From Eledone cirrhosa (Eukaryota): a stretch of DNA of 64,000 bases. The stretch spans positions 249,302,001 through 249,366,000 of the forward strand of contig OZ024742.1 of NCBI GenBank assembly GCA_964016885.1, given 5' to 3'. Below the pieces are notes generated by a model. The model ran no database searches and was not told the DNA's origin. It worked only from the letters and a program-made list of their open reading frames with translations. Both the position numbers and the translations under genes were made by a program. Positions 3,619 to 64,000 of the stretch are shown here, piece after piece. Position 1 is the stretch's first letter. Each line of letters begins with the position of its first letter.

Positions 3619-5272
<1,654 letters not shown>

Positions 5273-10145: not shown

Positions 10146-12120
10146 ACACATATACACACACACATACATTAATAACAATAATAATAATAATAATAATAAC
10201 AACAATAATAATAACGACAACAACAATAATAATATAACATATACATATACATACACACACACACGCACACACATAAGCATATCTACACACACACACACAC
10301 GATAGCAACTAACAGCGTTGCGATCGAATGTGGCTTTTTAGCCCAGCCAATGATCTAAAATGACTTGCACAGAGTCGGCAACCAAAACATTCACTGGGAA
10401 TAGTCGGCTGTGGTTGGAGTTCGTGTACTTTTGCATGTCGCTTGAGCCCTCCTGCTGATTTACATTCTCTACCACATGTTTGGCAAGCATGATGAGTAGC
10501 ATCTCCAACAGCAGCCTGGTAGTCAACCACTGGTCTTACCTTATGACTGCGAAGATGACTTTCGAGTCCAGCTTTGCTTAAGCAGAGTCTCGCACATACG
10601 CTGCATGTCAGCACCATAGGAGGACCTCGCCGTCTGGAAGTGCAACAGCAATGCCCTTCCTCACATCCCGCTTTACTTTCTCGTATGCGATTCGAGATGC
10701 CTCAAAGGCAACTTTTACCTCATATACAGTCTTTCTCCATTTATACGATCAGCAGCAATAGTCTCCCATGTATCAGCAGAGATGTTAGCGTCTTTCAGAG
10801 AGGCTTTCAAGGAATCCTTATACCTCTTTTTTGGTTTATATGGCGGTCGTTTTCCTTTAACCAACTCTCCATTATAGAGATGTTTTGGTATTCTAGAATC
10901 CTTCATCCTGGCAAGGTGACCACTCCAACGGAGTCGTTGCTTAACCACAACAGCTTCTATACTGTCACACAGAGCTTTCCAAAATCTCGACATCACTGAT
11001 GTGGTCCCTCCAGTGAACGCCATGGATCCGTCTGAGACATATCTGATGGAAACGCTTCAATTGCTTAAGGTGGTGTCGATATGTGACCCAGGTCTCGCAG
11101 TCGCAGGCATAAAGAAGACAAGAGAGCAGACATGCCCTGTACACCTTTACCTTTGTCCTCCTGCATATGTCTCGCCGACCCTACAGTCGCCTTTCTAGCT
11201 TTCCGAAAGCATCACTTGCTTTCCTAATCCTAAGTGAGATTTCACTGTCAAGGTTGCCGTATCGATTGACAGTGCTTCCCAGGTAGACAAACTGATCAAC
11301 CACTCCAAGTCGTTTGCCATACACATAGATGTTTGCTTCAGTGTACTGCTTACCAGGGGCAGGTTGGTACATGACGGCGGTTTTCTTGAGACTGACAGTC
11401 AGACCTAGGGCAGTGCAAGCGTCAGAAAATGCATTCAAAATGTGCTGCTTATCACTCTCTGTGTGCGCTACAAGATCGCAATCATCTGCATACAAGAGCT
11501 ATCTTATAATTGATGTAAACACTTTTGTCTTCGCAGCAAAGCGCCTGATGTTAAATATGCTGCCTGAGGTTCGATATCGGATGTAAACACCATGCTCGCA
11601 ATTCCTGAATGCAATACAGAAAACCATTGCAAAGTATATGGCAAACAGGGTCGGTGCTGGAATATCCCCCTGATTCACTCCATTTTTTACTGAGATAGGC
11701 TCCGACATGTTACCTCCGACATTAACCCAAGCCTTCATGTCGTCATGGAAATACCTAACTAAAGCAAGGAACTTATCAGGGCAACCAAGTTTCTGGAGAA
11801 CCTTCCATAATGCATCTCTGTTAACAGTATCGAAAGCTTTTGTCAGGTCGACAAAAACCTGATACAGATCCAAGCCTTGTTCCATGCACTTCTCCTGGAG
11901 CTGTCTAGCTGAGAAGATCATATCAGTAGTGCCGCGTCCAGCACGAAAACCAGATTGACTTTCATGAAAAACACAATCTGCAATGTGTGTCAGCAGACGG
12001 TCCAGAAGCACCCTACATCAAAATTTCCCTACGACAGAAAGCAATGATATACCTCTGTAGTTCCCACAATCGTTCCTGTTACCCTTTCCCTTGTACAAGA
12101 CCACCATTACTGCATCTCTC
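9960..12120 (-). mobile_element. 5'-truncated RTE/BovB-like LINE (RT pseudogene with three C-terminal C2H2 fingers; 3' terminus at ~9960)
   Basis: NYRGISLLS, ESQSGFRAGRGTTDMIF, FVDLTKAFDTVNR, GVNQGD, YADD, FVYLGS, RLRWSGHLARM; frameshifts and stops; terminal ggccatactcgataacgagggggcagccatcat. Confidence 0.92.
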
Positions 12121-12137
12121 CATACATACATACATAC

Positions 12138-12418
<281 letters not shown>

Positions 12419-17397: not shown

Positions 17398-20300
17398 ACC
17401 CTTCTCGAAACTTCTTCCTGCTCCCTCCTATTCTTCACCCCCCCCCCCCTCGTCATATATCGTATATGGGCCTGCAGGTTCTCCCCCCCACCTCTCTCCA
17501 AATATAAAATAAACTTGTGAGCTACGAAACTCAGAATTTGTCGATCCCTTATTCTTGGCTAGATCGCTCGCTCTTTTCTGAAATGTAATGTACTCTTTTC
17601 TCGTCTCTCCATGTTCCCTGGTCCATTCGTCTATCTGTATTATATCACCCAGAATCCAATCTTTTCTTTTCGATGCTATTCGCTCTTTTGTGAAATGTAA
17701 TGTACTCATCCTATTTTTTTCTCGTCTCTCCATGTTCCCCGGTCCATTCATCTATCTGTATTATATCGTCCAGAATCAAATCTTTTCTTTTCAATGCTAT
17801 TCGATAATTCTGTCTGATTGTTCCAAACAATCTTCTTGTATTTTAAAATTCCATAATTCTGTCAGACCCCCGAAAACGATCTTCTACTTGTATTTAAACT
17901 CTTATTACTGTTATATGCTCGTTTAATTATTGCCGAAATTCTAGGATTATAAAATAACCTTCCCGCTAACTCCCACATACCCCCCCCCCCCCACTATTAT
18001 TTGGACCAATCATAATTCAGCGGCCTATAATATCACTTCTTAACTTTAGACCTGGTTGCTTTTCGATATGTTAGATGGACTATGGAATTCTGGAGAGTCT
18101 GAAAAATCTGGACACTCAAATGACAATGCCAAAGATAGAGACAAATTCACCTCATATTGCCGGACGAGAATGCAAGGATTCCTCCTCTTTATTTCGGTCG
18201 CGGATGGCTAACATAACCCCATCTCCCTCACCCCTCCCTGCACCTCATCCTTCCCACCAACCAAACGCAATCCAAAACTTCAGAGTTGGTACCATGAATG
18301 TAGGCAGCTTAAAAGGTCGCTCTAACGAGGTTGTAGAGTTGCTTGATAGTAAGGAAATTGATGTTTGCTGTATTCAAGATACCAGGTGAAGGGGTGGGTC
18401 TTCTAGATTCATTGTGGGTAAAAAACGATGCTATAAACTTTTCTGGGTGGGAAATGACAATGGGTTGGGTGGAGTCGGAATGATGCTAGCAGAAAAATGG
18501 GTAGATAAGATAATAGACGTAAATAGAGTGAACGAAAAAATAATTAAAATAAGACTTGTCCTAAATAGAACTACTGCGACAATAATATCCGTGTATGCAC
18601 CCCAATCCGGACTGCTTGACGTTATAAAAGACAGATTCTATGAGTTGTTAATGCTCACTACCTCCCAAATAACCGACAGTGACTACATAATTATTGCTGG
18701 CGACCTAAATGGTCATGTTGGACAACATTGTGACGACTATGACGGAATCCATGGAAACTATGGTTTGGTAGTAGAAATGAGGAAGGCTCCATAATCCTGG
18801 AATTCTGTGACGCAAATAACCTAAATATCTGTAACACAAACTTCAAAAATCGAGACAATCACTTGTTCAGCTATAGATAAGGGGAACACGCCAGTCAGAT
18901 AGATTATATCCTAACCAGAAGACGTGATAGATTGTCTGTTGTAAACATTAAATCCATCCCCCATGAAGAATGCACCTCCCAACATAGCCTCATAGTTAGC
19001 GACCTCATAGTCAGGACGAGACGTACTCGACAACAGAGGAGGACTACCCCAAGGAGACGAATATGGAAGTTAAAGAACCCTTCAGCCAGTAATACATTTA
19101 AACGCATATTACTTGATGCTTTTGACAGTAAGGAAGAACAATTTGAGTCGTACAATATAGAGCAACAGTGGGCTATCCTGAGAGCTAACCTGCTGAAGGC
19201 GACATATGAAATCTGTGGCTGGAGCAGACCTATAGGCAAAAGGAGAGTAACTTGGTGGTGGAACAGTAAGGTGGTGGAGTCAATCAAGGCCAAAAAGCAG
19301 GCTTGGAAAGTATGGCAGGATGGGGGAAGTAGAGAAGACTATCAAGTGGCCAGGAGGGAAGCTAGGAGACAAGTGTACTTCGCAAGAAGGGAAGCAGAGG
19401 AAAGAAAGTTCAAGCATGTTCTACAACGCGAGGACCAAAAACGTGAGGTGTTCAGGATTGCTAGGCAATGTGCCAAAGAAAACATTGATATTGTCGGGGA
19501 GAAGTGTGTCCGTAATGATGATGGTGTACTTTCCATCACTGACGCTGATAAGAAGGTAGCTTGGAAGTGTCACTTCGAGAGGCTACTAAATGAGGAGAAT
19601 AAGTGGGACAAAGACAGTCTGCCGCACATCGATCCAATAGAGGGACCAGCAGTGCAAGTTGAAGGTAGTATAGTAAGTAAGGCAATCAAAGATATGAAAA
19701 CAGGCAAGGCGACTGGGCCTTCGGAAATAGTTGCTGAAATGCTGAAAGCATCTGGAACGGTGGGACACACTATGGTCTCCCGGATAGTAAACCAAGTCAT
19801 ATAGAATGGGGTCATACCAAAGCACTGGCGTAGCAGCATCATCATTAACTGCTACAAGGGTAAAGGAGATGCCCTAGACAGGGGAAACTATAGAGGCATT
19901 AAATTAATTGACCTGGTCATGAAGGTCACAGAAAAAGTTATAGCGCAACTAATCAGAAAGCGAATTGAGGTAGATGAAATGCAATTCGGGTTTGTGTCAG
20001 GTAAATGTACCACAGACGCTCTTTTCTTTGTACGACAACTAGAGGAGAAGTACCTAGCTAAAAGTAAACCCCTATACTTAGCTTTTGTTGACTTGGAAAA
20101 AGCCTTTGACAGAGTCCCCCGCTGCATTATCTGGTGGGCTCTTAGAAAACTAGGTGTTGGTGAATGGCTTGGGAGAGCTATACAAGCCATGTATAAAGAA
20201 ACAGTCAGCAAGGTTAGAATTAACAACGAATATAGTGAAGAGTTTAGCGTAAAAGTTGGTGTTCATTAGGGCTCTGTCCTTAGCCCCCTCCTATTTATTA

Positions 20301-21624
20301 TTGCACTTCAGGCTATAACAGAAGAGTTCAAGACCGGCTGCTCATCGGAACTTCTATACTCAGATGATCTAATGCTTATAGCTGAATCAATGACTGAACT
20401 ATTCCAAACATGGAAGCATGGCCTAGAATCAAAAGGCCTTAAAATTAACTTGTCTCAAACTAAAGTTCTAATATGTAGGAAGGAAAATCGGGCACTGGTC
20501 CCCTCTGGTAAATGGCCATGTTCCGTGTGTAGGAAAGGAGTAGGTAGAAACTCCATTTTATGTCCCAAATGCAAAGTATGGGTGCATAAAAGATGTAGTG
20601 GGATCACAGGTAAGCTAACTAAGAACATAGATTTTATATGTGGCCGGTGCTCAGGTGCAATAAGTAGTAGCAAGTTCCCACAGGATACTAGCTCCTTCTA
20701 TTACCCAGATGGTTCTATAGAAATAGTGGACACCTTCCGTTACCTCGGTGACAAAATCAGCAGTGGTGGAGAGTGTTCTGAAAATACAGTAGCTAGAGCC
20801 AGAACGGCATGGAAAAAGTTCAGAGAGCGTATACCACTATTGGCCGCTAAAAGTTTCTCTCTAAAAATGAAAGGTAGACTGTATGATGCCTGCATACGAA
20901 CGGCAATGTTACATGGCAGTGAGGCATCGGCATTGAGTGCAGAGAATCTACGCAGACTGGAGAGGAACGAAGCTTGCATGCTCCGTTTGATGTGTAATAG
21001 TAATATACGTGAACGGCAAAGCATAAATGAACTAAGTGAGAAATTAGGTATAAGAGGGATCAGATGCTGTTTACTCGAGAGAAGACTACGTTGATGGGCA
21101 TGAAAGACGACAGCTGTATAAAAAAGTGCAGGGCGATCAAAATAGACGGTAGCTACGGAGTAGGCAGAACCAGAAAAACCTGGGACGATTTGATAAATTC
21201 CGATCTTACACAGTAACACCTCTCCAAGGCAATGTCACTGGACCGAGATTTTTGGCGCTACACAGTAATACAGAAGCCCCGCCTTGGCTAAGTACAAAGG
21301 GAAACCTACAGTCAGTAGGCACACCCCCAACTACACCACCCGTTTCACTGTAACGTTATGTTGGTACCACAACACCCAGTCTTAAATAAATGAGGTGGTG
21401 TAGATGTCACGACAAAAAAAAAACATAGTCATGCTGTAATGTGGCGGTGTAGGTAACACAGAAAAAACTCCGAGTCCACACTGTAAACGTGGTTGGTGTT
21501 AGGAAGGGCATCCAGCCGTAGAAAACCTACTAGACAGTCCTACACGAGCAAGACAACCAATCTTGCCTCAAATGGGACAATTGCGGTCTAAAACTATGAT
21601 AGCGTGGAAGATAAACGTTAAACT

Positions 21625-25212: not shown

Positions 25213-25640
25213 GACAACCCACAACCCCCGCACCACAGCCAACCCAGTCAGTGACCGTCACCACCATCTTACAATCACATCCACCCCCACATACACTACA
25301 GGCGAAAGACAATCCACCACCCAGACACCACTGCCCCTCCCAGCCAGCGACCGTCACCACCATCTTACAATCACATCCACCCCCACATACACTACAGGCG
25401 ATAGACAATCCACCACCCTGACAGCCTGCCCCTCCCAGCCAGCGACCGTCACCACCATCTTACAATCACATCCACCCCCACATGCACTACAGGCGATAGA
25501 CAATCCACCACCCTGACAGCCTGCTCCTCCCAGCCAGCGACCGTCACCACCATCTTATCATCACATCCACCCCTACATACACTACAGGCGATAGACAATC
25601 CACCACCCTGACAGCCTGCTCCTCCCAGCCAGCGACCGTC
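25213..25640. repeat. 95-96-bp minisatellite, ~4.5 copies
   Basis: Unit gacaatccaccacc...cactacaggcgata starts at 25213, 25308, 25404, 25499 and 25594. Confidence 0.92.
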
Positions 25641-25807
25641 ACACATCCCTATGATCTATTCCCAGCCAGCGAAAACATCCCTATGATCTATTCCACCAAT
25701 CAAAACAATTCATATTGACCAACATATGAACTTCTGACTTTATCATAGCATGTATTCATTTTCTACTACCATTTTATAGGGTCTGTCGAGCTGCCGATTA
25801 TAGAGTC

Positions 25808-34020: not shown

Positions 34021-34047
<27 letters not shown>

Positions 34048-34052
<5 letters not shown>

Positions 34053-34243
34053 AACGAGTAGGACCCCGACGGGTGAGCTCAAGCCGTTTCGACGGCTAAT
34101 TCTAGTCCAGAATTAGCCGTCGAAACAGCTTGAGCTCAGCTGTCGGGGTCCTACTCGGTCCTATTACCCACTCTACTACCCTAAGTATTGAGTACTTTGG
34201 TGCGTTATGGTCCACCTGGTTCCTTACCACATTTCCTTCGTTA
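34048..34243 (+). mobile_element. Fold-back PLE-like mini-element in (TA)n with an HHR 3' half
   Basis: ~55-bp arms around agtcc; cGAAACAGCT-tgagctc-AGCTGTC then gggg; ~75-nt tail shared with 12180 and 38490. Confidence 0.8.
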
Positions 34244-37558: not shown

Positions 37559-37634
<76 letters not shown>

Positions 37635-37870
37635 ATATATATATATATCTTTCTCTATCCCTCTCTTTCCCTCTCTCCCACTCCCTCTGTTTTCTCCCTT
37701 AGACCCTTCTCTCTCATACTGTTAGTGTTTCTGTTAAACGATGTAATAGCCTCCATGTATTTATCTTTGGTGGCTCATTGATAGTGATTGCATCTCCAAA
37801 CATAGCTGACCAGTGTTAAATGTTCACAATTTCCCTTCTGACAAGTAATGATTCTGCCTTTGAATCTTAC

Positions 37871-38044
37871 CGTAGCCTTCATAAACTGGAATATCATATT
37901 TATGGTTGTATCGTGTTTGAAAATTTCTGTAGCCCCCACTATCAGTGGTATATATCAGACCAGTTTTAAAATGTCCCCTATTTCTCTGAAACTGGATATT
38001 TTTTGGCTTGAAAGAAATACTGCCACAGTATTCTGGATAGTCCC
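37871..38044 (-). CDS. Probable internal coding exon (174 nt, phase 1-1) of an unidentified host gene
   Basis: Polypyrimidine acceptor ctctctttacgccctttgtgtactttAG, donor G|GTAAGA, open frame (G)DYPEYCGSISFKPKNIQFQRNRGHFKTGLIYTTDSGGYRNFQTRYNHKYDIPVYEGY; unique non-repetitive sequence. Confidence 0.6.
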
Positions 38045-38380
38045 CTAAAGTACACAAAGGGCGTAAAGAGAGTAACCGGTATATACAAGATCTTATTTCA
38101 GAGTAGGAAGGCCAACAGATACAGTGCTAACTAGATGTTAGAGAGATAAAGTCGTTGCTGTTCTGGTAGATTTCAATAACCATTACAATCAACACTCTTT
38201 TGGCTCTTTAATAAGAGGGTGTGGTTCGTATTTTCTCCATTTTCTTCTCTTTTTTTTCGTTTCCTTTAACACTTGCATCCTTTTCATTTCTTTATTCTCA
38301 TACACTTCTGAACATAGATTCTTTCACTTTTTCCACTTTTTCCTCATTTAATGTTACGTGTGCATACAGAGAGAGAGCGC

Positions 38381-38469
<89 letters not shown>

Positions 38470-38489
38470 ACACACACACATATATATAT

Positions 38490-38678
38490 ATAGGAAAAGA
38501 GTCAGGACAGCGACGGCTGAGCTCCGGCCGTTTCAACAGCTATCTCTCTAACATCTAGTTCGGATCTAGCTTTCGAAACGGCCGGAGCTCAGCCGTCGGG
38601 GTCCTGACTCTTTTCCTATTACCCACTTTTCTACCCTTAGTATTGAGTACTATGGTCCACCTGGTATCTTACCATACT
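38490..38678 (+). mobile_element. Fold-back PLE-like mini-element (third copy of the family) with an HHR 3' half
   Basis: ataggaaaagagtcaggac..gtcctgactcttttcctat; cGAAACGGC-cggagctca-GCCGTC gggg. Confidence 0.8.
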
Positions 38679-38828
38679 CTCTTCCGCCTCCGTGGTATTT
38701 TCTTCGGGGTTATAAGAGGCTTAGCTCTGTTTCTCGACCGTTATATCGCGTGACTATCTCCCCCTCCGCCTTTTGGGATTCTTTCTCACGTCGTGTAGAC
38801 GCGTTCTTGAAGCTAGTAAAATGAGGTA

Positions 38829-38918
38829 TCCTCTTGATAAGTCGGCAGACCTCGCAAGGACTCTATATCTTTATGATGTATTGTTTTTGTTTATGCCACG
38901 AAACTACGTAGTCGAGGA
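38829..38918 (+). ncRNA. Type I hammerhead ribozyme with U3-A8 core and long loop II (copy 1)
   Basis: tcctc TTGATAA gt(c)ggca..~45 nt..tgccac GAAA ctacgtag TC gagga; 10-nt palindrome ACTACGTAGT; predicted cleavage after 38913. Confidence 0.8.
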
Positions 38919-39421
38919 ATCTAGGAGTAGTTTAGGTATGATACATTTTATTACTAATTATATCTAAATGTTTCTTCTCTCTTCATAATGTATTTTTAAC
39001 TCTGATACTGGTTCAGTCTAATTCAACCGGATTGGTTTGTCCCAGTCATTCATTGAGCAACATCGGTGAGGTTGGCACCATTAACTCACGGTTGGGTGTG
39101 GATGCATTCATGTATATGTGTGTGTCCGCATGTATCTGTGTGTTTCTAAATATATTGTTCATAACTCCCTCTGGTCGAGTAATCTTTGAAGTGTGGTGAC
39201 TGCTGGAAAGCTGCCATTACTCATACTTCTTGCCTCCTTCACCACCTCTTCTACGGCTTCGATATAAATACCTCCTCCGCCTCCGTGGTATTTTCTTCGG
39301 GGTTATAAGAGGCTTAGCTCTGTTTCTCGACCGTTATATCGCGTGACTATCTCGCCCTCCGCCTTTTGGGATTCTTTCTCACGTCGTGTAGACGCGTTCT
39401 TGAAACTAGTAAAATGAGGTA

Positions 39422-39511
39422 TCCTCTTGATAAGTCGGCAGACCTCGCAAGGACTCTATATCTTTATGATGTATTGTTTTTGTTTATGCCACGAAACTAC
39501 GTAGTCGAGGA
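39422..39511 (+). ncRNA. Type I hammerhead ribozyme with U3-A8 core (copy 2, identical)
   Basis: Same sequence as copy 1; predicted cleavage after 39506. Confidence 0.8.
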
Positions 39512-39580
39512 ATCTAAGAGCAGTTTAGGTATGATACATTTTATTACTAATTATATCTAAATGTTTCTTCTCTCTTCATA

Positions 39581-39649
<69 letters not shown>

Positions 39650-39652
<3 letters not shown>

Positions 39653-40246
39653 TCAACCTGTTAGTTCTTTCGTTACTTTGGTACTGTGTGTTAGATTTTG
39701 CCTACCACAATGTTCAATTTGTCAAGCTATTTAAACGTATGTTATTACTCTAAAGACCTACCTTGTCGAGTGCTTTGCTAACTCATTCATATAGTAGGTC
39801 GAATTTGCTTGCACACCACCAAAGATTCGATTGTACTAAGCATCCAATTATATTATTTTCTCCTAGATTTAATAATTAACTAATTAATTTAATTAGACAA
39901 TTCTGTTGATTGGTTAATTATTTGTGTTTGTTTAATAACATCTGGTCGAGAGCTTATTCTGTAAGTTAGCGGAAATTATAATATTTCCTTTGTCTAACAT
40001 TTTGAATGACCCGCCAAAAACCGGGGGATATTTCCCTTGCTGGAAATAACACGTGACAACTAAATATACGATTCGCTGCTGCTAGCGGCAACATTTAGGA
40101 TCTCGCCCCGTTCTTTGGTAGAACGAAAATCTGTTGATGAATTGAATCCTCTGTTCGATCATGAATACCACGAGCTTGCCAGTTACGTAAGTCTGATATT
40201 TGATTTCGGATTCATAGAAACACTTTATTGTGTGCGTGTGTGTATA

Positions 40247-40328
<82 letters not shown>

Positions 40329-40563
40329 GTGTGTATATATACATAAATATGTATAATGTAAACGGTGTGAACTGAAAATAAATCAAAGCATCCATTTTAA
40401 ACCTATACGTTTGATTTGTCCAGGTGTATTTTTTCTCAACCTGTTAGTTCTTTCGTTACTTTGGTATTGTGTGATAGATTTTGCCTACCACAATGTTCAA
40501 TTTGTCAAGCTATTTAAACGTATGTTATTACTCTAAGGATCTACCTTGTCGAGTGATTTGCTA
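39650..40563. repeat. ~130-bp direct repeat pair (39650-39780 and 40433-40563)
   Basis: ttctcaacctgttagttctttcg...ctaccttgtcgagtg.tttgcta occurs twice. Confidence 0.85.
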
Positions 40564-40960
40564 TGAATTCGCCAAGGAAGTATCTATATTCAGGCCCTCT
40601 GTTTAGTTCATAAACTTGCACCACCGACAGAGATATTTCTTTCATGCTAAGCTTCAAATTCTCCCTCCAAATGTGACCCAGTCCATAACACATTCTGACA
40701 GACGGGGACTTGTGCGTTTCGGTTGCCACACCTGAACAGAGGAGTTTCTATCCTATATCAGTTTGAGAACCATGGAATTTTATTCAGAAAACCCCAACTA
40801 AATCTAACCTGTAGCATCTGGCCTCCACCGCTAGTTCCCGTTCTTTGCCTATAAGGGTTGTAATGTTCCAGTAACCAATTGTCAAGGTTTTCTCCCTTAC
40901 GGATCGTATTGCAGCTAACCATCATATCCACCAGCTTCAACCCGTTCTCTAGCAGAACAG
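40564..40960 (-). mobile_element. 5' APE fragment of an RTE LINE
   Basis: TLTIGYWNITTLIGKERELAVEARCYRLDLVGV..KLLCSGV..LSVVQVY. Confidence 0.7.
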
Positions 40961-41827
40961 CTCTGCTCAGAAGTTATGCATTTTCAATAAATGTTAGTCT
41001 TTGAATTCGTATACTTCTAGCGAATATAATTTAGATGAATTCTTTCTATATATTTACTATTTTAATATTTAAATTTAACATATTAATAATAAGTTATTAT
41101 TACTATTGTATAATGATTTCTGATATTTATGCATTATAATTGTAATTTTATTGTTGGGTGGCTTTGATAAACTAATGATTGTTAATCCTTTTGTCCTTTA
41201 ACCACATTTAAAACGATAAAGGTTCCACCTAGAGTACTTACATTGCGAACATATGCACTTACATTTGCACGCAAAGTAGATATAATTATTAATTTTAGAA
41301 TCTCTTACACTTGATTTACCTAATTGTTTTCCATCTAATAGAATTTTCTGTACCACCATTTTCATACTGCTCATAATTAAAAATTATGTTGCGGTATTAT
41401 ATTGCAAATTATTGATAGGGGGCGGATCATTCAAGTAACGCTAAGTAACTTGTCCCTGTTAATCTATTCCCTCCATCTTTCTATCTATCTCTCCGTCTTT
41501 CTCCATCGATCTAGTCTCCATGTATTTCCTCTCCTCCTCTCCACCCTCTCTATAACACCCTCATTTCTCACCCCTCTCTCTCCTTCTCTCTCACCCTCTC
41601 CGTTCGATTTGTGGTTATATCTTATCAGACGCTGTGACCGCGGGTGGACACGCAGTACCGTTGGTAGGAGTCAAAACTACCAAAGTCCGGCTGAAGACCT
41701 TGGAGTTCGGTGCCTTTTATTTGTCTTTTTATTTAAAAAAAACCTTTCTTCAAAGTTTCCCTTTTAAGAAAAGATTTTTAGTTTTGCCTTCTTTTCGTTC
41801 CTTTTCATTTCTTTGTTAATTATTCTA

Positions 41828-44630: not shown

Positions 44631-44706
<76 letters not shown>

Positions 44707-44904
44707 GGATGCTTAGTAAAATCGAATCTTTGGCGGTGTGCAAGCACATTCGACCTACTATATGAATGATGTACCATATTTCCCGGTGCCGAAGATGCTT
44801 CATGCTCGAAGACGCACCTTAATCTTGACTCCAACAATTTGAAAAAAAAATAATAACCTTCGGCCTCCAAGACGCAAACCCCACCCTCACAGTGAGCTAA
44901 CTTC

Positions 44905-50627: not shown

Positions 50628-53600
50628 TTACAGACACATACTCAGAGAAGGCCCATTCATTCGGGCCATACTTGCTTCTCTCACCCATCTTTCAACAAAA
50701 TGCTGGGAAGACAGCACTTCCCTCTCTACCCTGATTTTCCTTTTCAAATGAAATTTGAAAAAGTTAATCAGGGCATCACCGAAGAGGTAAGTGCTCGTCT
50801 TCAGCCTTTCAAACGTGTCCACCATACTATCTCTTTCGCCATGGCCACCAGACAGATAAAAACTGCCTGCCCTTCCCGGCTAAAGGAAGAGGGCGGGGCA
50901 ATCCTCACGATGGACTCAGCTGATAGCCGGATCCGTCCTACACGTGACAGCAGGTGTTCGACATAAACCCACAAGTCAGCAATGCTCGGACACTGGATGA
51001 GGGCGTGCAGGACGGTTTCGTCGCCCTGTGCGCATCTCGGACATGCCCGGCTGACGGCACCTCCATGCCTGTAGAGTTTATCCCGAACTGGCAAAGCTCC
51101 CCGGTAGCACTGCCAGGCCAGGGATTTCTGGAAGTTGTCCATAGGCCCCGGCCCGAAAGTCCTTCCGAAGAGATTGGCTAGTTGATTTTCGTCGATGCCT
51201 AGAGTTTCTCCAAGTACGTCGTCGCTCTTCCACTCCACTAATCCCCTATAGAACGCCAAGGTGGAGTTTCCACCGATCACATTGCCCGATTAGTCGAGGG
51301 CTCTGAGCGCCTGAAGACATTCCAGTCTCCAAGCGCTCCCTCTCGGTCTTCGCTTGACCCAGGACTGCAGCTCCGTCAAGGAGACGAGCTGGGGAAAAAC
51401 GTGTCTAGCAAACGGCGACCACACCTGATCACCGTCGAGGAAGAGGTGGAGATGTCGTAGCCTGAGCGCATGTCTGCGCATCATCAGCCACGTAGCGGGT
51501 GTTGACAGCAGATGGACCGCCTGACCATCGGAGCGCGTCCCTTCCACAAGAAGCGAAAGAGCAAACGCTCCAGCGCAGTCAGGCGGGGCTTAGGACAAGG
51601 TATGACGATCAGGCGGTAGTAGATGACGGACGCGATGTACGCGTTAGCCACCTCCGCTCGACCTTTCAGGGATAGCTTCCTCTCGGCCCATTTCTGGGTG
51701 AGGGAAGCCACCCTGCTCGTCACCTCGTCCCAGTTTTTGTCCGTCTGGAGGTCTGGACCGAACCAGACCCCTAACAATTTAACCGGTCCGTCCGTCCAGC
51801 GCCCGACGACGCTGTTGGACGGCATGGACCTGCCTCTCCAGGTGCCGAGCTGCAGGCCCACTGACTTTTCCTGGTTGATCATTGCTCCTGTCACCGCTTC
51901 GTATTCTCTTAGTGTAGTGCCGATCGCCTCAATGTGTTTGGCGTTCGACACCACTACGGTGACATCGTCCGCATATGCTGACACGGATCTTCCGCATCCT
52001 AGCTCGCGCGGGACCCCCCTCAACGTCTCCAGTTTGTGCAGTAATGGCTCGAGAGTCAATACGTACAATAGGGACGAGAGGGGACATCCTTGGTGGACCG
52101 AGCGCATGATGTTGAACGGTTCCGAAAGGTGACCGTTCACTCTCACTACAGAGCAGATGTCGCTGTGCATGGCAGCGATCCAGCCTCTGAAGACGGGCCC
52201 AAAGCCAGCCGCCCTCAGGACTGCCGCTAGGTAACGATGGTCGACCCTATCGAAGGCTTTCGACTGATCTAAATTGATCAAAGACCCACCCGTGCCAGGT
52301 TCCCTAGCTACCCTCTCTACGATGTATCGCATGAGGTGGAGGTTGTCGTGGATGGATCTGTCGGGAATGGTGCATGTCTATGCCTCTCCCACCAGACCAC
52401 CAACGACAAGCGCCAACCTCTTTGCTAGCACCTTGGCCAAAATCTTGAATTCTGTGTTTAGCAAAGTTATGGGCCTAAAATTATCTATGTTATCCCCCTT
52501 GTTCGGATCCTTTCTCAGCAGCGTCACCGCTCCTCGGCTCACAGAGCTGGGAATTCTCCCGTTCTGTTGCCAGTTGCAGTAGAGGTCCGCCAAGAGGCCT
52601 CCAAACAAGTCTGGCATTTGTACGTAAAGTTCATAGGGCAGACCATCCAAACCAGGCGATTTTCCCCTTGTGCAGCCAGTCATTGCCTCCCGTACTTCAG
52701 CGGTTGTTATCGGCTTTTCGCAAAACTCCGCCTCAGTGGCCGAGAGCTGCGGCAGTCCGTCGAGGTAGACACTAAAGTCCATCCCTCGATCCGGCCCGCC
52801 ACTGCCCCCGAACATTTGAGCGAAGTGTCGCTGAAAAGCTTCACACATTTGCCCGGGATCGAGTAGCATGCGCCCGTCGTGGTCCACCAAAGACCTGATC
52901 GTGGCTTTGTTGCCACGACGCGCCTCCGCCACTCGGGCCCATTTAACGGCTTTCGTCCCCTCGTGTCTGAGAGCACGCACCCTAGCTCTGACAACGCAGC
53001 CTTCGTGTTTTGCATTGAAGAATTGGTCAAGGGCCAATTTCGCCGCAAGTACGTCGGTCGCGATGCCTTTGCTAAGCGCCTCGTCTAATTTTCTAACTAA
53101 TTCTCCCTCTGCTCTATTTTTCTCTATTGCTAAAGCCTTACTAAACCTAATGGACTCTATTCTAATTGCTCTTTTCAGAGCAAACCACCACTTGTTATTG
53201 ACGATGGCCCCCGTCAACGCCCGCTTAACTAGTTCGCTAATCCGGTCTCTGTAGACCTTATTCGCTGGTAAGGACGCGTTTAGCTTCCAGTAGCCGGGTC
53301 CTCGTCTATGAAGCCTATCTAAGTCAAGCACACAGATCACGAATTTGTGGTCCGTGTAGCTGACTATCTCGAATTGTGGACAGCCTATGCTAGACCTATC
53401 TATTTCCCTACAAAATACTCTATCCAGATATGATCTGGATGACCCTATGCGATTTGTCCAAGTCCACATTGGTACATTCGAAAAATCCATTCGGTACCTG
53501 TCAGACAGTTCAAAACGCCTGAGCAGGTTGGTGAGACTCTTGCACCCTCCTTCCCTATCCACTAATCCCACACAATCCCAGCGTGCATCTAAGATCCCGT

Positions 53601-54026
53601 TCCAGTCGCCCACTAACACTAAAGGGCGGGACGTTCCAAGAAAGGTCTCCAGACGCCTGAAGAAATCAGGCCGCCCTGCTCCTGTCGGGGCATAGACGGC
53701 CACTAACCTGAAAGCTTGCCCGTCTCCGCTGGTCACGTCCAGCACCACCAACTTACCTTCTGGGTTTAGGAAGATGGCCCGTATGGCAAGATCCAAACCT
53801 CTCCGAAAAAGCACAGCAAATCCTCCCCCAGATCCCGGACGGCTGGGAGATGCGTACACATCGTAGTCGCCGAAGATCGGTGCGAAGGCCCGTGCTCGGA
53901 GATTCTGGTCTCGCTGATGGCCACTACATCTATGTTTCGTGACCTGAGGTCGTTGAGCAGGTGGCCCTGCTTCCATGACGATCCCAAGCCACGCGCATTT
54001 ATGCTGCCTATTCTGAGTGAGGTCAT
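50628..54026 (-). pseudogene. Tx1 ORF2 (APE, RT, C-terminal CxxC..H..C), disrupted
   Basis: MTSLRIGSINARGL, VGDWN, SYLDRV, TDHK, WKLN, KSPGLDGL, FRPITLLN, LDQSKAFDRV, HQGCPLS, YADD, CPRC..ET..H...C; frameshifts and stops. Confidence 0.95.
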
Positions 54027-54060
54027 GTTGAAAAGGAGTGGAAAAGATGGGAAAGACCAC

Positions 54061-56326: not shown

Positions 56327-56328
<2 letters not shown>

Positions 56329-58508
56329 GTATAAAATTTTAACATCAGTCCTAACTGAATATACATATGACCACCTGATAACAAATGACCTATTTCCCAT
56401 TAAGCAGAAAGGGTGTAAACGAGGCTCATATGGTTGTAAGGATCAGCTTTTGGTTAACAAAATGATACTGGAAGATTGTCATAATAGACACAAAAATCTA
56501 TCAATTGCTTGGATAGATTATAAAAAAGCATTCGATGGTTTGCCACACAGTTGGATTGAAAAATGTTTAGAGATTTTCAAAATATCCCCCGTTGTCAGGA
56601 GGTTTTTGTCATTCAGTATGAAGACATGGAAAACGACACTCCTTTTGAATAGTGAAACAAAATCACTGGAAGCGGGAGAAGTTAATATTAATTGTGGAAT
56701 GTTTCAGGGTGACTCTTTATCACCGCTTTTATTCTGCATCACACTTATATAATTAAGTAAAATGCTCAATGAATCAAAACATGGATATAAAGTCTATGAC
56801 AAAACCATTAATCACTTGTTCTACATGGATGACCTGAACCTATTTGCAAAAAATGATGAACAATTGCAAGGGCTATTATCCACTGTGGAGCAGTTCAGTG
56901 ATGACATTAAAATGGAGTTTGGACTAGATAAATGCGCCAAAGCAACGTTCACCAGATGAAAGCTGCTGAAAAGTTCAGACATTGATCTTGATCGATGGAA
57001 TGTGATAAGAGAACTTGATCAAGAGGAAACTTACATATCTAGGTGTTTGTGAAGGAGACGGAATCAAGCTCTCGACAATGAGGGAAAGGATAAGGAAGGA
57101 ATGTTACCGCAGAGTAAAAGCAATCTTCAGAACGGAATTGAATGCAAGGAATAGGATCGATGCCATAAACACGCTTGCCATACCAGTAGTAACCTACAGT
57201 TACAATGTCATCAACTGGTCAAGCACCTAGATCCGTAGGCTGGATACAATAATTCGAAAATTCTTAACCATGCACAGAATGCATCAGCCTAAGGCAGATA
57301 CAGATAGAATATATCTCCCTAGGAAAGAAGGAGGACGTGGGTTAATCCAGTTAGACATTGCGTTGAAAACTGCAACAATTGGATTATCTACATATCTAAG
57401 GGAATCACATGATTGGATGATCAAACTCGTTTTGAAACACGAAAGCATCAAAAGATCATACTCCATTACAAAAGATGCACAAAGATACAGTAATGGACTA
57501 CACATTTCAGAAGTCCCATTTACTGCTGAAATGGAAAACACAGAAAAAGCAAACCAGGTAAAAGTAACTGCAAAGAAAGAACTGCTACAGAAACTGGCTA
57601 AGAAATGGCAAGAAAATCCTCTGTATGGAAAATACCCAGACGAGCTAACAATCCTGATGTTGACAAAACTTTAACCCATCAGTGGTTGGCATCCTCTGGA
57701 CTGAAATCGGAGACTGAAGGACTGATTATATCAGCACAAGATCAGTGTCTGCCAACAAAAAATTACCAAGCCAACATAATAAAAAATGCAGCCCATTATG
57801 CCGTGTATGTACAAAACAACCAGAGACCATTGACCATATAATTTCAATGTGCAGTCCTATAGCTCCAACCGAATACCTAAACAGGCATGACAGAGCTGCA
57901 CAATACATACATTGGATAATGTGTAAGCATTTTGATCTGCCCCATCAAAAGAATTGGTGGGAGCATCAACCCCCTCCCGTATTTGAAAAAGATCACATCT
58001 CAATCTTGTGGAACTTTAGCATCCAAACAGACCGAAACATAGATGCAAATAGACCTGATATAATACTGAAGGACTTTAAAAAGAGGGTATGCCTGCTAAT
58101 TGATATGTCTGTTCCAATAGACAAGAATGTATCTATAAAAACATTTGAAAAATTGAGCAAGTATAAGGACCTAGAGATAGAAATTGGAAAAATGTGGAAA
58201 TTGAGAACTAAAACAATACCAGTGGTTGTAGGCGCTCTAGGAATGATACCTAAGGGGTCTATGATTACTTATCGCAAATCCCAGGAAACTCGCATATAGG
58301 AGAAATACAAAAGATAGTACTAATGGGAACTGCCCATATACTAAGGAAGATTCTGTCAATATAAGTACATCACAAGTCTAAACACCTAAAGATGCATGTG
58401 TGTGTATGTATGTTCTTTCTTGAACATGGCGGACCTTGTTGTCTCTTGAGGTCACTGGTTGTGACTTGGTGATAACTCGTATGAACATAAAGCAAGATAA
58501 ATGCAACT
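56327..58508 (+). mobile_element. 5'-truncated R4/Dong-clade non-LTR retrotransposon (RT, CCHC, restriction-like endonuclease) with a (TAA)n tail
   Basis: QKGC..GSYGCKDQL, WIDYKKAFD, GMFQGDSLSPL, YMDD, GLDKC, CRVC..ETIDHI..C, RHD, NRPDII..IDMSVP..KY.DL; stops and frameshifts. Confidence 0.93.
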
Positions 58509-59261: not shown

Positions 59262-62200
59262 GTTTTCTTTATTAACCACAAGGGTTCACATAAAGTAGAC
59301 ATTAAGGACAGTACAGGACGATACAGGACAGTACAAATGGGCATTTCTGCGTGTAAAAAAACAGAGGTTGAAATAAAATAACAAAGAAAAATTCCCCAAT
59401 AGGGGGGAGACTTCCAAGGGACATTTGTGGAGAAAGCCCATTAAAAGACCACAGTGGCCCTGACCACCAGGGCAAGCGCCCTCTCCCAGTTTTCCACCTT
59501 TAATTTACAGACACATACTCAGAGAAGGCCCATTCATTCGGGCCATACTTGCTTCTCTCACCCATCTTTCAACAAAATGCTGGGAAGAGAGCACTTCCCT
59601 CTCTACCCTGATTTTCCTTTTCAAATGAAATTTGAAAAAGTTAATCAGGGCATCACCGAAGAGGTAAGTGCTCGTCTTCAGCCCTTTCAAACGTGTCCAC
59701 CATACTATCTCTTTCGCCATGGCCACCAGACAGATAAAAACTGCCTGCCCTTCCAGGCTAAAGGAAGGGGGCGGGGCAATCCTGACGATGGACTCAGCTG
59801 ATAGCTGGATCCGTCCTACACGTGACAGCAGGTGTTCGACATAAACCCACAAGTCAGCAATGCTCGGACACTGGACGAGTGCGTGCAGGACGGTTTCGTC
59901 GCCCTGCGCGCATCTCGGACATGCCCGGCTGACGGCACCTCCATGCCTGTAGAGTTTATCCCGAACTGGCAAAGCTCCTCGGTAGCACTGCCAGGCCAGG
60001 GATTTCTGGAAGTTGTCCATAGGCCCCGGCCCGAAAGTCCTTCCGAAGAGATTGGCTAGTTGATTTTCGTCGACGCCTAGAGTTTCTCCAAGTACGTCGT
60101 CGCTCTTCCCCTCCACTAATCCCCTATAGAACGCCAAGGTGGAGTTTCCACCGATCACATTGCCCGATTGGTAGAGGGCTCTGAGCGCCTGAAGACATTC
60201 CAGTCACCAAGCGCTCCCTCTCGGTCTTCGCTTGACCCAGGACTGCAGCTCCGTCAAGGAGACGAGCTGGGGAAAAACGTGTCTTGCAAACGGCGACCAC
60301 ACCTGATCACCGTCGAGGAAGAGGTGGAGCTGTCGTAGCCTGAGCGCGTGTCTGCGCATCATCAGCCACGGCATGCCCAGCCCTCCACGTAGCGGGTGTT
60401 GACAGCAGATGGACCGCCTGACCATCGGAGCGCGTCCCTTCCATAAGAAGCGAAAGAGCAAACGCTCCAGCGCAGTCAGGCGGGGCTTAGGACAAGGTAC
60501 GACGGTCAGGCGGTAGTAGATGACGGATGCGATGTACGCATTCGCCACCTCCGCTCGACCTTTCATGGATAGCTTCCTCTCGGCCCATTTCTGGGTGAGA
60601 GAAGCCACCCTGCTCGTCACCTCGTCCCAGTTTTTGTCCGTCTGGAGGTCTGGACCGAACCAGACCCCTAGCAATTTAACCGGTCCGTCCGTCCAGCGCC
60701 CGACGACGCTGTTGGACGGCATGGACCTGCCTCTCCAGGTGCCGAGCTGCAGGCCCACTGACTTTTCCTGGTTGATCATTGCTCCTGTCACCGCTTCGTA
60801 TTCTCTTAGTGTAGTGCCGATCGCCTCGATGTGTTTGGCGTTCGACACCACTACGGTGACATCGTCGGCATATGCTGACACGGATCTTCCCCATCCTAGT
60901 TCGCGCGGGACCCCCCTCAACGTCTCCAGTTTGTGCAGTAATGGCTCGAGAGTCAATACGTACAATAGGGACGAGAGGGGACATCCTTGGTGGACCGAGC
61001 GCATGATGTTGAACGGTTCCGAAAGGTGACCGTTCACTCTCACTACAGAGCAGATGTCGCTGTGCATGGCAGCGATCCAGCCTCTGAAGACGGGCCCAAA
61101 GCCAGCCGCCCTCAGGACTGCCGCTAGGTAACGATGGTCGACCCTATCGAAGGCTTTCGACTGATCTAAATTGATCAAAGACCCACCCGTGCCAGGTTCC
61201 TTAGCTACCCTCTCTACGATGTATCGCATGAGGTGGAGGTTGTCGTGGATGGATCTGTCGGGAATGGCGCATGTCTGTGCCTCTCCCACCAGACCACCAA
61301 CGACAAGCGCCAACCTCTTTGCTAGCACCTTGGCCAAAATCTTGAACTCTGTGTTTAGCAGAGTTATGGGCCTAAAATTATCTATGTTATCCCCCTTGTT
61401 CGGATCCTTTCTCAGCAGCGCCACCGCTCCTCGGCTCACAGAGCTGGGAATTCTCCCGTTCTGTTGCCAGTTGCAGTAGACGTCCGCCAAGAGGCCTCCG
61501 AACAAGTTTGGCATTTGTACGTAAAGTTCATAGGGCAGACCATCCAAACCAGGCGATTTACCCCTTGTGCAACTAGTCATTGCATCCCGTACTTCAGCGG
61601 TTGTTATCGGCTTTTCGCAACACTCCGCCTCAGTGGCCGAAAGCCGCGGCAGTCCTTCGAGGTAGACACTAAAGTCCATCCCTCGATCCGGCCCGCCACT
61701 GCCCCCGAACAGTTGAGCGATGTGTCGCTGAAAAGCTTCACACATTTGCCGGGATCGAGTAGCATGCGCCCGTCGTGGTCCACCAAAGACCGGATCGTGG
61801 CTTTGTTGCCACGACGCGCCTCCGCCACTCGGGCTCATTGAACGGCTTTTGTCCCCTCGTGTCTGAGATCACGCACCCTAGCTCTGACAACGCAGCCTTC
61901 GTGCTTTGCATTGAAGAATTGGTCAAGGGCCAATTTCGCCGCAAGTACGTCGGTCGCGATGCCTTTGCTAAGCGCTTCATCTAATTTTCTAACTAATTCT
62001 CCCTCTGCTCTATTTTTCTCTATTGCTAAAGTCTTACTAAACCTAATGGACTCTATTCTAATTGCTCTTTTCAGCGCAAACCACCACTTGTTGTTGACGA
62101 TGGCCCCCGTCAACGCCCGCTTAACTAGTTCGCTAATCCGGTCTCTGTAGGCCTTGCGCGCTGGTAAGGACGCGTTTAGCTTCCAGTAGCCGGGTCCTTG

Positions 62201-64000
62201 TCTATGAAGCCTATCTAAGTCAAGCACACAGATCACGAATTTGTGGTCCGTGTAGCTGATTATCTTGAATTGTGGACAGCCTATGCTAGACCTATCTATT
62301 TCCCTACAAAATACTCTATCTAGATATGATCTGGATGACCCTATGCGATTTGTCCAAGTCCACATTGGTACATTCGGGAAATCCATTCGGTACCTGTCAG
62401 ACAGTTCAAAACGTCTGAGCAGGTTGGTGAGACTCTTGCACCCTCCTCCCTATCCACTAATCCCACACAATCCCAGCGTGCATCTAAGATCCCGTTCCAG
62501 TCGCCCACTAACACTAAAGAGCGGGACGTTCCAAGAAAGGTCTCCAGACGCCGGAAGAAATCAGGCCGCCCTGCTCCTGTCGGGGCATAGACGGCCACTA
62601 ACCTGAAAGCTTGCCCGTCTCCGCTGGTCACGTCCAGCACCACCAACTTACCTTCTGGGTCCAGGAAGATGGCCCGTATGGCAAGATCCAAACCTCTCCG
62701 AAAAAGCACAGCAACTCCTCCCCCCGATCCCGGACGGCTGGGAGATGCGTACACATCGTAGTCGCCGAAGATCGGTGCGAAAGCCTGTGCTTCGGAGATT
62801 CTGGTCTCGCTGATGGCCACTACATCTATGTTTAGTGACCTGAGGTCGTTGAGCAGGTGGCCCTGCTTCCATGACGACCCCAAGCCACGCGCATTTATGC
62901 TGCCTATTCTGAGTGAGGTCATGTTGAAAAGGAGTGGAAAAGATGGGAAAGACCACTTTCCTTACTTCTCGTAGGGGAAGGACGGTTTTTCCATCCTTTT
63001 CACTTCTTGTGGCCTCCTCAGGAAGGATGTCCTTATAAATCCTCCTGGAGAGTGCTTGTCGGAAGTCTCCGATGTCTTTGGGGAATTTTTGTTTTAGTGT
63101 CATGTACGTTTTCTGTGTGATGCGAGTGATTCGTATGTGTGGAGGTGGTGTGAATTTTGGGGTTGTTGTGTAGTCTATTTCTGTGATGCTGGTGTTGTGT
63201 TGGATGTAGTGCAATAATTGCTTGTTGTTCAAATTTAATGCTGTGTAGTGTGTATCGTTTTGGTTGTTTTGTTTTGTTTGCGTTTGTTGTGTGTTTGTTT
63301 CTGTTTCGCATTTTGGTGACTTTTGTGGTGTAGGTGATGGTGGTGTTGGAGTTAATGATGGTGATGGTGTTGGTGTTTGGGTTGATGGGGTTGGTGATGC
63401 TGGTGTGGATGGTGGCATATCTGTCCTAACTTTTTTGTTTCTTAGTTTATTTGTTTCCCTCTGTATTTTGTTTTTGGAGGGGGAAGGAAGAGAATTTTTT
63501 TTTTTTTGGTTTCTTTTTTTTTTTCCGGATATCGTTTCCCACTCCTCGTCGTCACAATCTGTCTCCAGTTGTGATAGGCCGAGGAGTGGAAAATCCTCCA
63601 CAGCCGTTAGTTTTGGTTGTGGTGTGGTGGATGGTGTAGGCGCTGGTGCTAGTTCTGAAGCGTTGGGTGGTGGTGGTGTTGGTTTTGCTGGTGGTGGTAG
63701 TGGTGTTGGTTTTGCTACTGTTGCTGGGGTTGTTGCTGTTATAGTTGCTTCTGTTGTTGCTGCTACAGTTGTTGCTGCCATCTCTGCTACTGGTGGTGTT
63801 GCTGGTTGTGTCACTGGAGTGGGTAGGAGAGGTGGCCTCAACCTTTTAGCCTGAGGGCAGAAAGCCCTTAGGTGGGTTCCTTCACCACAAACGACACACC
63901 TAGGTCTTCTGCCCTCGACAATTACCGTGAGGTGGCTGCCGTCAGTGAGGTTTATTACCTCTGGGATCTCCTCAATGCTTTTTTGGTCCGCTTGGATCAG
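59262..64000 (-). mobile_element. Second Tx1 LINE copy (continues beyond the window), 3' end in (TAA)n
   Basis: Highly similar to 50378-55120; ORF1 C-terminal half plus ORF2. Confidence 0.95.
59505..62922 (-). pseudogene. Tx1 ORF2 of copy 2, disrupted
   Basis: Pieces 62341-62922, 61835-62386, 60204-61838 and 59505-60158 carry APE, RT and zinc-finger motifs. Confidence 0.95.

Follow-up and report, generated by a model that had tools for sequence, protein, structure and literature searches.

Introduction

Penelope-like retroelements (PLEs) carry hammerhead ribozymes with U3-A8 cores, a bulged helix II and a palindromic helix III; their cleavage is weak and dimer-dependent, and a circle has been proposed as the template (PMC4209133). 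PLE insertions form partial tandems and use (TA)n targets, and some families with pseudo-LTRs are non-autonomous; Hydra-1_Obim, from octopus, is a PLE that bears a hammerhead and targets (TA)n (PMC8557442). For O. vulgaris, 190 Penelope-like families and 30 recently active Penelope families have been reported (PMC13282606), and the accompanying supplement contains no mention of hammerheads.

Non-LTR retrozymes were defined by Cervera and de la Pena (2020; PMC7229834) as units of 150-450 bp. Their circles are found in coral, mussel and axolotl, RtcB ligates them in vitro, and most metazoan circles are predicted to leave the ribozyme free. A later study (Li, Clavereau and Pollet 2026; 10.64898/2026.07.22.740005) extends the size range to 51-972 bp and describes homology to pseudo-LTRs; one of the nine retrozyme dimers assayed there cleaved in vitro, and the remaining eight showed no cleavage. 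Our literature search found no cephalopod retrozyme, and repeat libraries or supplements may hold such a family under the headings Penelope-like, SINE or unknown repeat.

Here we describe a locus in a 64,000-nt stretch of Eledone cirrhosa DNA (hereafter the window; coordinates count from its first letter), following a preliminary description made from the sequence alone. The locus carries a head-to-tail insertion of about one and a half copies of a many-copy, protein-free 593-nt unit, with a hammerhead in each of its two repeats and a (TA)n run on its 3′ flank, and the junctions that would make the unit cyclic recur across its family. This is probably a non-autonomous Penelope-like retroelement, that is, a non-LTR retrozyme, which would be released by cutting as unit-length RNA, would probably be circularised, and would be copied into (TA)n by a borrowed Penelope-type enzyme. 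The element class and its link to PLEs are already in print, and no new class is opened; the family would extend retrozymes to cephalopods, and its ribozyme architecture, as modelled, is possibly unusual.

Results and Discussion

A partial tandem of a 593-nt unit

The two direct repeats, described beforehand as about 315 bp long and 593 nt apart, measure exactly 315 nt at that spacing and lie on the + strand at 38679..38993 and 39272..39586. They differ at five positions, numbered on copy 1 as 38682, 38761, 38812, 38924 and 38928. Sequence comparison and the joint found in other family members (below) identify copy 1 as a pseudo-LTR-like, 5′-truncated copy of the unit's 3′ part; its true start, according to that family junction, is near 38683, with a few bases common to the hairpin element that abuts it. 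The separator, put at about 280 nt, spans 278 (38994..39271, + strand) and is joined to the repeat in three of the runs examined, so that it belongs to the family unit. The insertion at 38683-39586 therefore comprises 904 nt, or 1.52 units arranged head-to-tail, and includes two complete hammerheads. Its 3′ end, which is also that of copy 2, lies 80 nt beyond the second predicted cleavage site and runs into (TA)33 (39584..39650). This run, located by repeat detection, is the likely insertion target, given that several PLE clades favour (TA)n (PMC8557442). On the left, the insertion borders on a second element that is itself flanked by (TA)n, as expected of insertions that target microsatellites.

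The unit was proposed to lack open reading frames, and a Pfam search of 18 reading frames across 37690-40231 agrees, with no family above cut-off in any of them. A PLE reading-frame fragment considered at 37700-38340 was likewise unsupported by the Pfam search. A 47-codon open stretch within the repeat was considered as a coding remnant and set aside, with third positions accounting for just two of nine variants and no Pfam match. An autonomous PLE was not found among the 57 complex ORFs (of 160) scanned in the window.

The octamer TATAAATA does precede the second repeat (39263..39270, + strand), where it may serve as a TATA-like promoter, in contrast to the Penelope promoter, which is described as TATA-less. 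It occurs 38 times in the window (21 + 17) and is thus weak evidence taken alone. Copy 1 has no such box in front of it, so if the box is the promoter, transcription of a full unit would need read-through. An 81-nt GT..AG stretch just past the hammerhead (38936-39016) resembles a short intron, comparable to the Penelope intron located in a pseudo-LTR; a matching skip is absent from the joints in all four runs compared, which says little since the run types are unrecorded.

The ends of the insertion bear on which enzyme might mobilise it. The window is rich in LINE ORFs, and PMC7229834 leaves LINEs possible as partners of retrozymes, so a LINE of RTE, L1-Tx1, CR1 or R4 type might be imagined to move the element, which would then be a ribozyme-bearing, SINE-like repeat. 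We regard this as highly improbable: the element sequence has no visible tRNA-like head, poly(A) tail or target-site duplication, its two flanks are unlike each other, and self-BLAST of 37600-41000 detects no similarity to the LINEs of the window, whereas PLEs share with it the partial tandem, the type of hammerhead and the (TA)n target. A PLE-type tail of 30-40 bp was not recognised at either end in the locus sequence.

Two identical type I hammerheads

Each repeat contains a type I hammerhead (38829..38918 and 39422..39511, both + strand), and the two are, as claimed, letter-for-letter the same. Stem I of the first pairs 38829-33 with 38914-18, and the core UUGAUAA begins at 38834 and 39427, with U3-A8 replacing C3-G8. 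The G10.1-C11.1 and A15.1-U16.1 pairs, C17, the GAAA segment and the opening at stem I all accord with the type I definition. The 10-nt palindrome described as stem III is present (38903-12 in the first copy), as is the GUC site, which places the predicted cuts after 38913 and 39506 and delimits a predicted 593-nt monomer or circle at 38914..39506 (+ strand; 41.7% GC, 62% paired).

The stem II loop of about 45 nt is the one structural element of the preliminary description that we would replace. The segment is predicted to fold as an extended stem II, consisting of a 6-nt bulge (38848-53), 8 bp, a 2x2 internal loop, 6 bp and a 5-nt terminal loop. Immediately upstream of each ribozyme is a leader, UGAGGU (38822..38827, second copy 39415-39420, + strand), that may either form a pseudoknot with the stem II bulge or contribute to a hairpin blocking stem I.

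When the two strands of the 64 kb were scanned for the structural pattern, four matches were returned: both hammerheads, plus 8166 (+) and 26154 (-), whose stems III are made of A and T only. Rfam assigned no hammerhead family to the motif at E<=10 and returned just sub-threshold miRNA-type matches; the long stem II is the likely cause, and the locus thus displays a form of hammerhead that Rfam misses. Scans of sequence collections gave no match in prokaryote genomes or in metagenomes, where 38 matches to a looser pattern included none with BLAST similarity to the unit, and a single match in a viral collection, judged to be chance (none for the hairpin element). Six motifs were looked for in the Naiad/Hydra/Chlamys sequences of the PMC8557442 supplement (Craig et al.); five do not occur there and the sixth has two matches that lack a hammerhead context.

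Family copies in public sequencing runs

Parts of the stretch occur in 20 of 23 public runs listed, covering 16 studies and 17 organism codes, with none of them listed as RNA. Positions 38536-39271 were compared with the contigs of four of these 20 runs: X1 and X4 (which share organism code A), X5 (organism B) and X15 (organism L); the shares of the stretch in the other 16 (0.10-0.51) do not enter the argument. In X1, 12,129 contigs fall on this interval, which includes part of the hairpin element, and all 30 bins are covered. The joint leading from the spacer back into the repeat (39271 to 38683) is present in seven contigs of X1 (depth 1041.6), two of X4 and one of X5, and is absent from those of X15, which contain 170 nt of spacer with one difference. 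The opposite step, from repeat to spacer, is bridged by record 15 of X4 and record 21 of X5, while the junction between the hairpin element and the unit is spanned by no listed contig piece.

At least three versions of the unit are represented in X4: a major one, a minor one with a single difference from the window over 39130-39271, and a subfamily of about 85% identity in which the middle of the spacer is replaced and the spacer-to-repeat joint is kept. The unit is therefore a multi-copy, multi-subfamily family, and a single-copy local duplication, named in advance as the finding that would speak against a mobile unit, does not accord with joints in three of the four runs and several subfamilies. 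We give hardly any credence to the related view that the locus is a DNA-level satellite or local duplication with an incidental dead hammerhead; the presence of just 1.5 units here is in keeping with it, but the junctions recur under two organism labels, the ribozyme core has no listed variants, and the predicted structure is strand-specific.

Record 21 of X5 (621 nt) covers 38874-39271 and then 38683-38899, and its ends overlap by 30 nt. It is apparently a closed 591-nt cycle, matching 593 nt plus the listed indels. An end overlap of 30 nt at a word length of 31 is the typical appearance of a closed cycle in such assemblies. The cycle can derive from a circular molecule or, equally, from partial tandems in the genome that lost their flanks to pruning; the type of the run is unrecorded, and its contigs do not tell RNA from DNA.

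Summed depth over the repeat exceeds that over the spacer by about 3.1-fold in X1, 1.5-fold in X4 and 1.0-fold in X5 (microsatellite-like spacer bins excluded); since summed depth is not copy number, an excess over the repeat only hints at solo repeats or at other elements sharing it. Depth in X1 rises at 38686-38740, which on copy 2 would begin 16 nt beyond the first T of the TATA-like box. The X1 excess is what might be seen if the unit had arisen from an autonomous PLE, through internal deletion or as a terminal derivative, and were moved as linear, uncut read-through RNA, with the hammerheads as poorly cutting pseudo-LTR baggage and the circle irrelevant. Weak cleavage of PLE hammerheads in vitro (PMC4209133) sits comfortably with this scenario, and an uncut multimer explains where the insertion ends no less well than a circle. 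We nevertheless consider it unlikely: the excess all but vanishes in X5 and is modest in X4, the 47-codon stretch discussed above leaves no coding trace, and strand-specific folding (below) extends over the whole unit, spacer included.

The high identity of the repeats had been taken to indicate a recent insertion. Both repeats share letters at 38811, 38878 and 38921 that are unlike the majority in organism A, which shows a single copying event from one template but gives it no date.

Variation within the family

The variants considered comprise 40 of 50 substitution entries, and 33 of these 40 lie inside the unit. Among those listed, none falls in 38822-63 or 38881-918, against 33 across the unit; together these segments form an 80-nt variant-free window that covers the core, stems I and III, the leader and the base of stem II. 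Under uniform placement such a window has P ~0.008, a value that applies to a window picked after seeing the data. Variation within the hammerhead is confined to the tip of stem II, where the loop has lost 2 nt in one case and U.G has become U-A in another; the latter change is one-sided, consistent with pairing and the sole one listed inside stem II.

Across the 32 variant sites, 12 changes keep a predicted pair, seven break one and 13 are unpaired, with no two-sided compensatory change among them. A bias of the variants towards preserving structure was considered, but random placement gives no significant difference (P 0.07-0.24 for these sites, and P 0.06 when the 22 major sites are taken).

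Predicted folding of precursor and circle

The monomer folds better than its shuffles on the + strand (z -5.9 linear, -5.6 circular), versus -0.2 on the - strand. Six control stretches gave z of 0.5, -0.2, -2.4, -0.6, -2.8 and -5.4; the last, one control of the six, is a LINE coding region that folds as well as the unit.

The dependence of cutting on a dimer, proposed beforehand, gains support from the folding predictions, which favour a double hammerhead in a precursor with two copies. The palindrome is predicted to form no hairpin alone and to form a 10-bp duplex with its second copy (-12.9 kcal/mol). In all six precursor lengths modelled, stem III is predicted to pair across copies (P 0.83-1.0), and the double hammerhead is calculated to be 7-14 kcal/mol better than two single ones. 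It is also predicted to lie 2-5 kcal/mol above the minimum-energy fold, with one of its two stems I mostly unformed (P ~0.04).

Stem I has two predicted competitors: a leader hairpin covers its 5′ strand, and its 3′ strand is captured by a strand further downstream. For the circle these are predicted with P 0.85 and 0.94, respectively, and the catalytic fold would cost 5.9 kcal/mol; the modelled circle is thus predicted to rest in an inactive 'off' fold. When the leader is cut away in the prediction, P for the outer stem I rises to 0.99. The leader is complementary to the stem II bulge over 6 bp (-8.0 kcal/mol), a match equalled by 3.7% of random 12-mers from the unit, and the resulting pseudoknot, which lies outside what the folding program handles, would do away with the leader-hairpin competitor.

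These predictions could be combined, in a proposal that we consider rather unlikely, into a two-lock switch ribozyme in an octopod circular-RNA retroelement. It would cut only when stem III pairs across copies and the bulge and leader form their pseudoknot, and once the circle is complete, the strands of stem I would be kept apart by the leader hairpin and the downstream strand. If so, the family would yield an abundant, self-protecting circle of 590 nt common to several species of octopod, on which reverse transcription of the rolling-circle kind by Penelope enzymes could be tested directly.

Pseudoknot-stabilised hammerheads (Perreault et al. 2011, PMC3088659) similarly pair a stem II element with sequence on the stem I side, as the 6-bp pairing predicted here would. 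In the present case the partners would instead be the 5′ leader and a bulge within a long stem II, and the argument for it draws on complementarity and a lack of variants rather than on covariation.

Relation to known retroelements and a possible route of mobilisation

The family shows most of the testable features of non-LTR retrozymes. Like those of other metazoans, it has no ORF, one type I hammerhead per repeat, a head-to-tail arrangement (1.52 units at this locus), many copies, a self-paired predicted RNA and a proposed dependence on PLEs, and it has the size of a few hundred nt and the GC content below 50% that the retrozyme definition requires. The 593-nt unit exceeds the 150-450 bp of PMC7229834 and falls within the 51-972 bp of 10.64898/2026.07.22.740005. 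Metazoan non-LTR retrozymes form arrays, whereas here 1.5 units lie in a (TA)n run and no longer array was seen; their hammerheads have the canonical loop 1-loop 2 form, in contrast to the PLE-type U3-A8 core and long stem II found here; and their circles are mostly predicted to leave the ribozyme free (PMC7229834), unlike the circle here, which is predicted to be self-blocked.

The resemblance to PLEs (PMC4209133; PMC8557442; PMC2377424) lies in the partial tandem with a 5′-truncated upstream copy, a hammerhead near the 3′ end, a palindromic stem III, a (TA)n target and no target-site duplication. The U3-A8 core is as in Schistosoma and the bulged helix II as in D. virilis, and a partial tandem that forms pseudo-LTRs with a hammerhead, the mark of non-autonomous PLE families, is present at this locus. 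Autonomous PLEs have an ORF with RT and GIY-YIG domains, neither of which was detected here by Pfam, and the hammerhead of Hydra-1_Obim, as described in PMC8557442, is unlike the present one. Plant LTR retrozymes (PMC4918200) also have two direct repeats of about 300 nt, each with a hammerhead, around a non-coding middle, but their ribozymes are of type III and they are flanked by a 4-bp target-site duplication, whereas the element described here is of type I, has no such duplication and resides in an animal.

In a two-copy transcript the palindromes are predicted to find each other over a distance of 593 nt and the resulting double hammerhead to cut after 38913 and 39506. A host RtcB-type ligase, as in other retrozymes, may then close the monomer. 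Reverse transcription would begin 80 nt beyond the cleavage site and cross the cleavage junction twice, and a Penelope-type enzyme, following the mobilisation proposed for PLEs in the literature, would copy the unit into (TA)n runs. An insertion with its end 80 nt beyond the site of cleavage, and with two occurrences of the cleavage junction inside it, points to a circle or an uncut multimer as template; a simple linear monomer produced by cutting would serve only if the enzyme jumped between templates.

The family offers a compact test of two questions, the role of hammerheads in Penelope-like elements and the use of circles as templates for transposition. Its value for such a test lies in insertion ends that are away from the cleavage sites and in a ribozyme for which no variants are listed, in contrast to the remainder of the unit. 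The family also comes with precise predictions: dimer-only cutting, a 6-bp pseudoknot and a locked circle.

Neighbouring elements in the window

The left flank of the unit is a separate, high-copy, (TA)n-flanked hairpin element (38490..38686, + strand), with further copies near 34047-34236 (+) and 12182-12295 (-). It folds at z -16, and its summed depth in X1 reaches 1.07 million. Its 3′ arm resembles the 3′ half of a hammerhead, with GAAAC, a near-palindromic stem III that shows matched letter differences between two copies, and GUC; ahead of this arm is an inverted copy of it, with no CUGANGA half. The element is probably a second non-autonomous PLE derivative. Its centre contains, at 38541-38560, an exact 20-nt inverted copy of 38129-38148, 400 nt upstream; integration may have involved copying this piece of the flank. 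Relative to the unit, the depth of the hairpin element differs strongly between X1 (ratio about 3) and X4 (about 40), runs that share an organism code and whose types are unrecorded.

A third repeat family begins right after (TA)33 (39644-39849, 40427-40563 and, on the - strand, 44699-44769). It provides a second partial tandem, with copies 783 nt apart and 95% identical, and a 3′ fragment elsewhere ends in (TA)n; no hammerhead core was found in it, and the region folds at z -2.4.

Profile domains identify LINE remnants at 50804-54060 (-), 59508-62961 (-), 19805-21091 (+), 11184-12017 (-) and 56327-56749 (+). Two have endonuclease, RT and zf-RVT domains, one has an RT followed by a PHD finger, and the others are RT fragments. 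Among the best 120 of 301 matches to the RT at 60207-61868, the closest named relative is an Argonauta hians protein at 72% identity, and most others are at 42-52%, in keeping with an octopod host. The intervals 3837-4550 (-) and 10312-10701 (-) contain mariner-type HTH fragments as well as a C2H2 zinc-finger ORF, and minisatellites lie at 25243-25642 (period 95 nt, 4.2 copies) and 17568-17854 (period 121 nt, about 2 copies).
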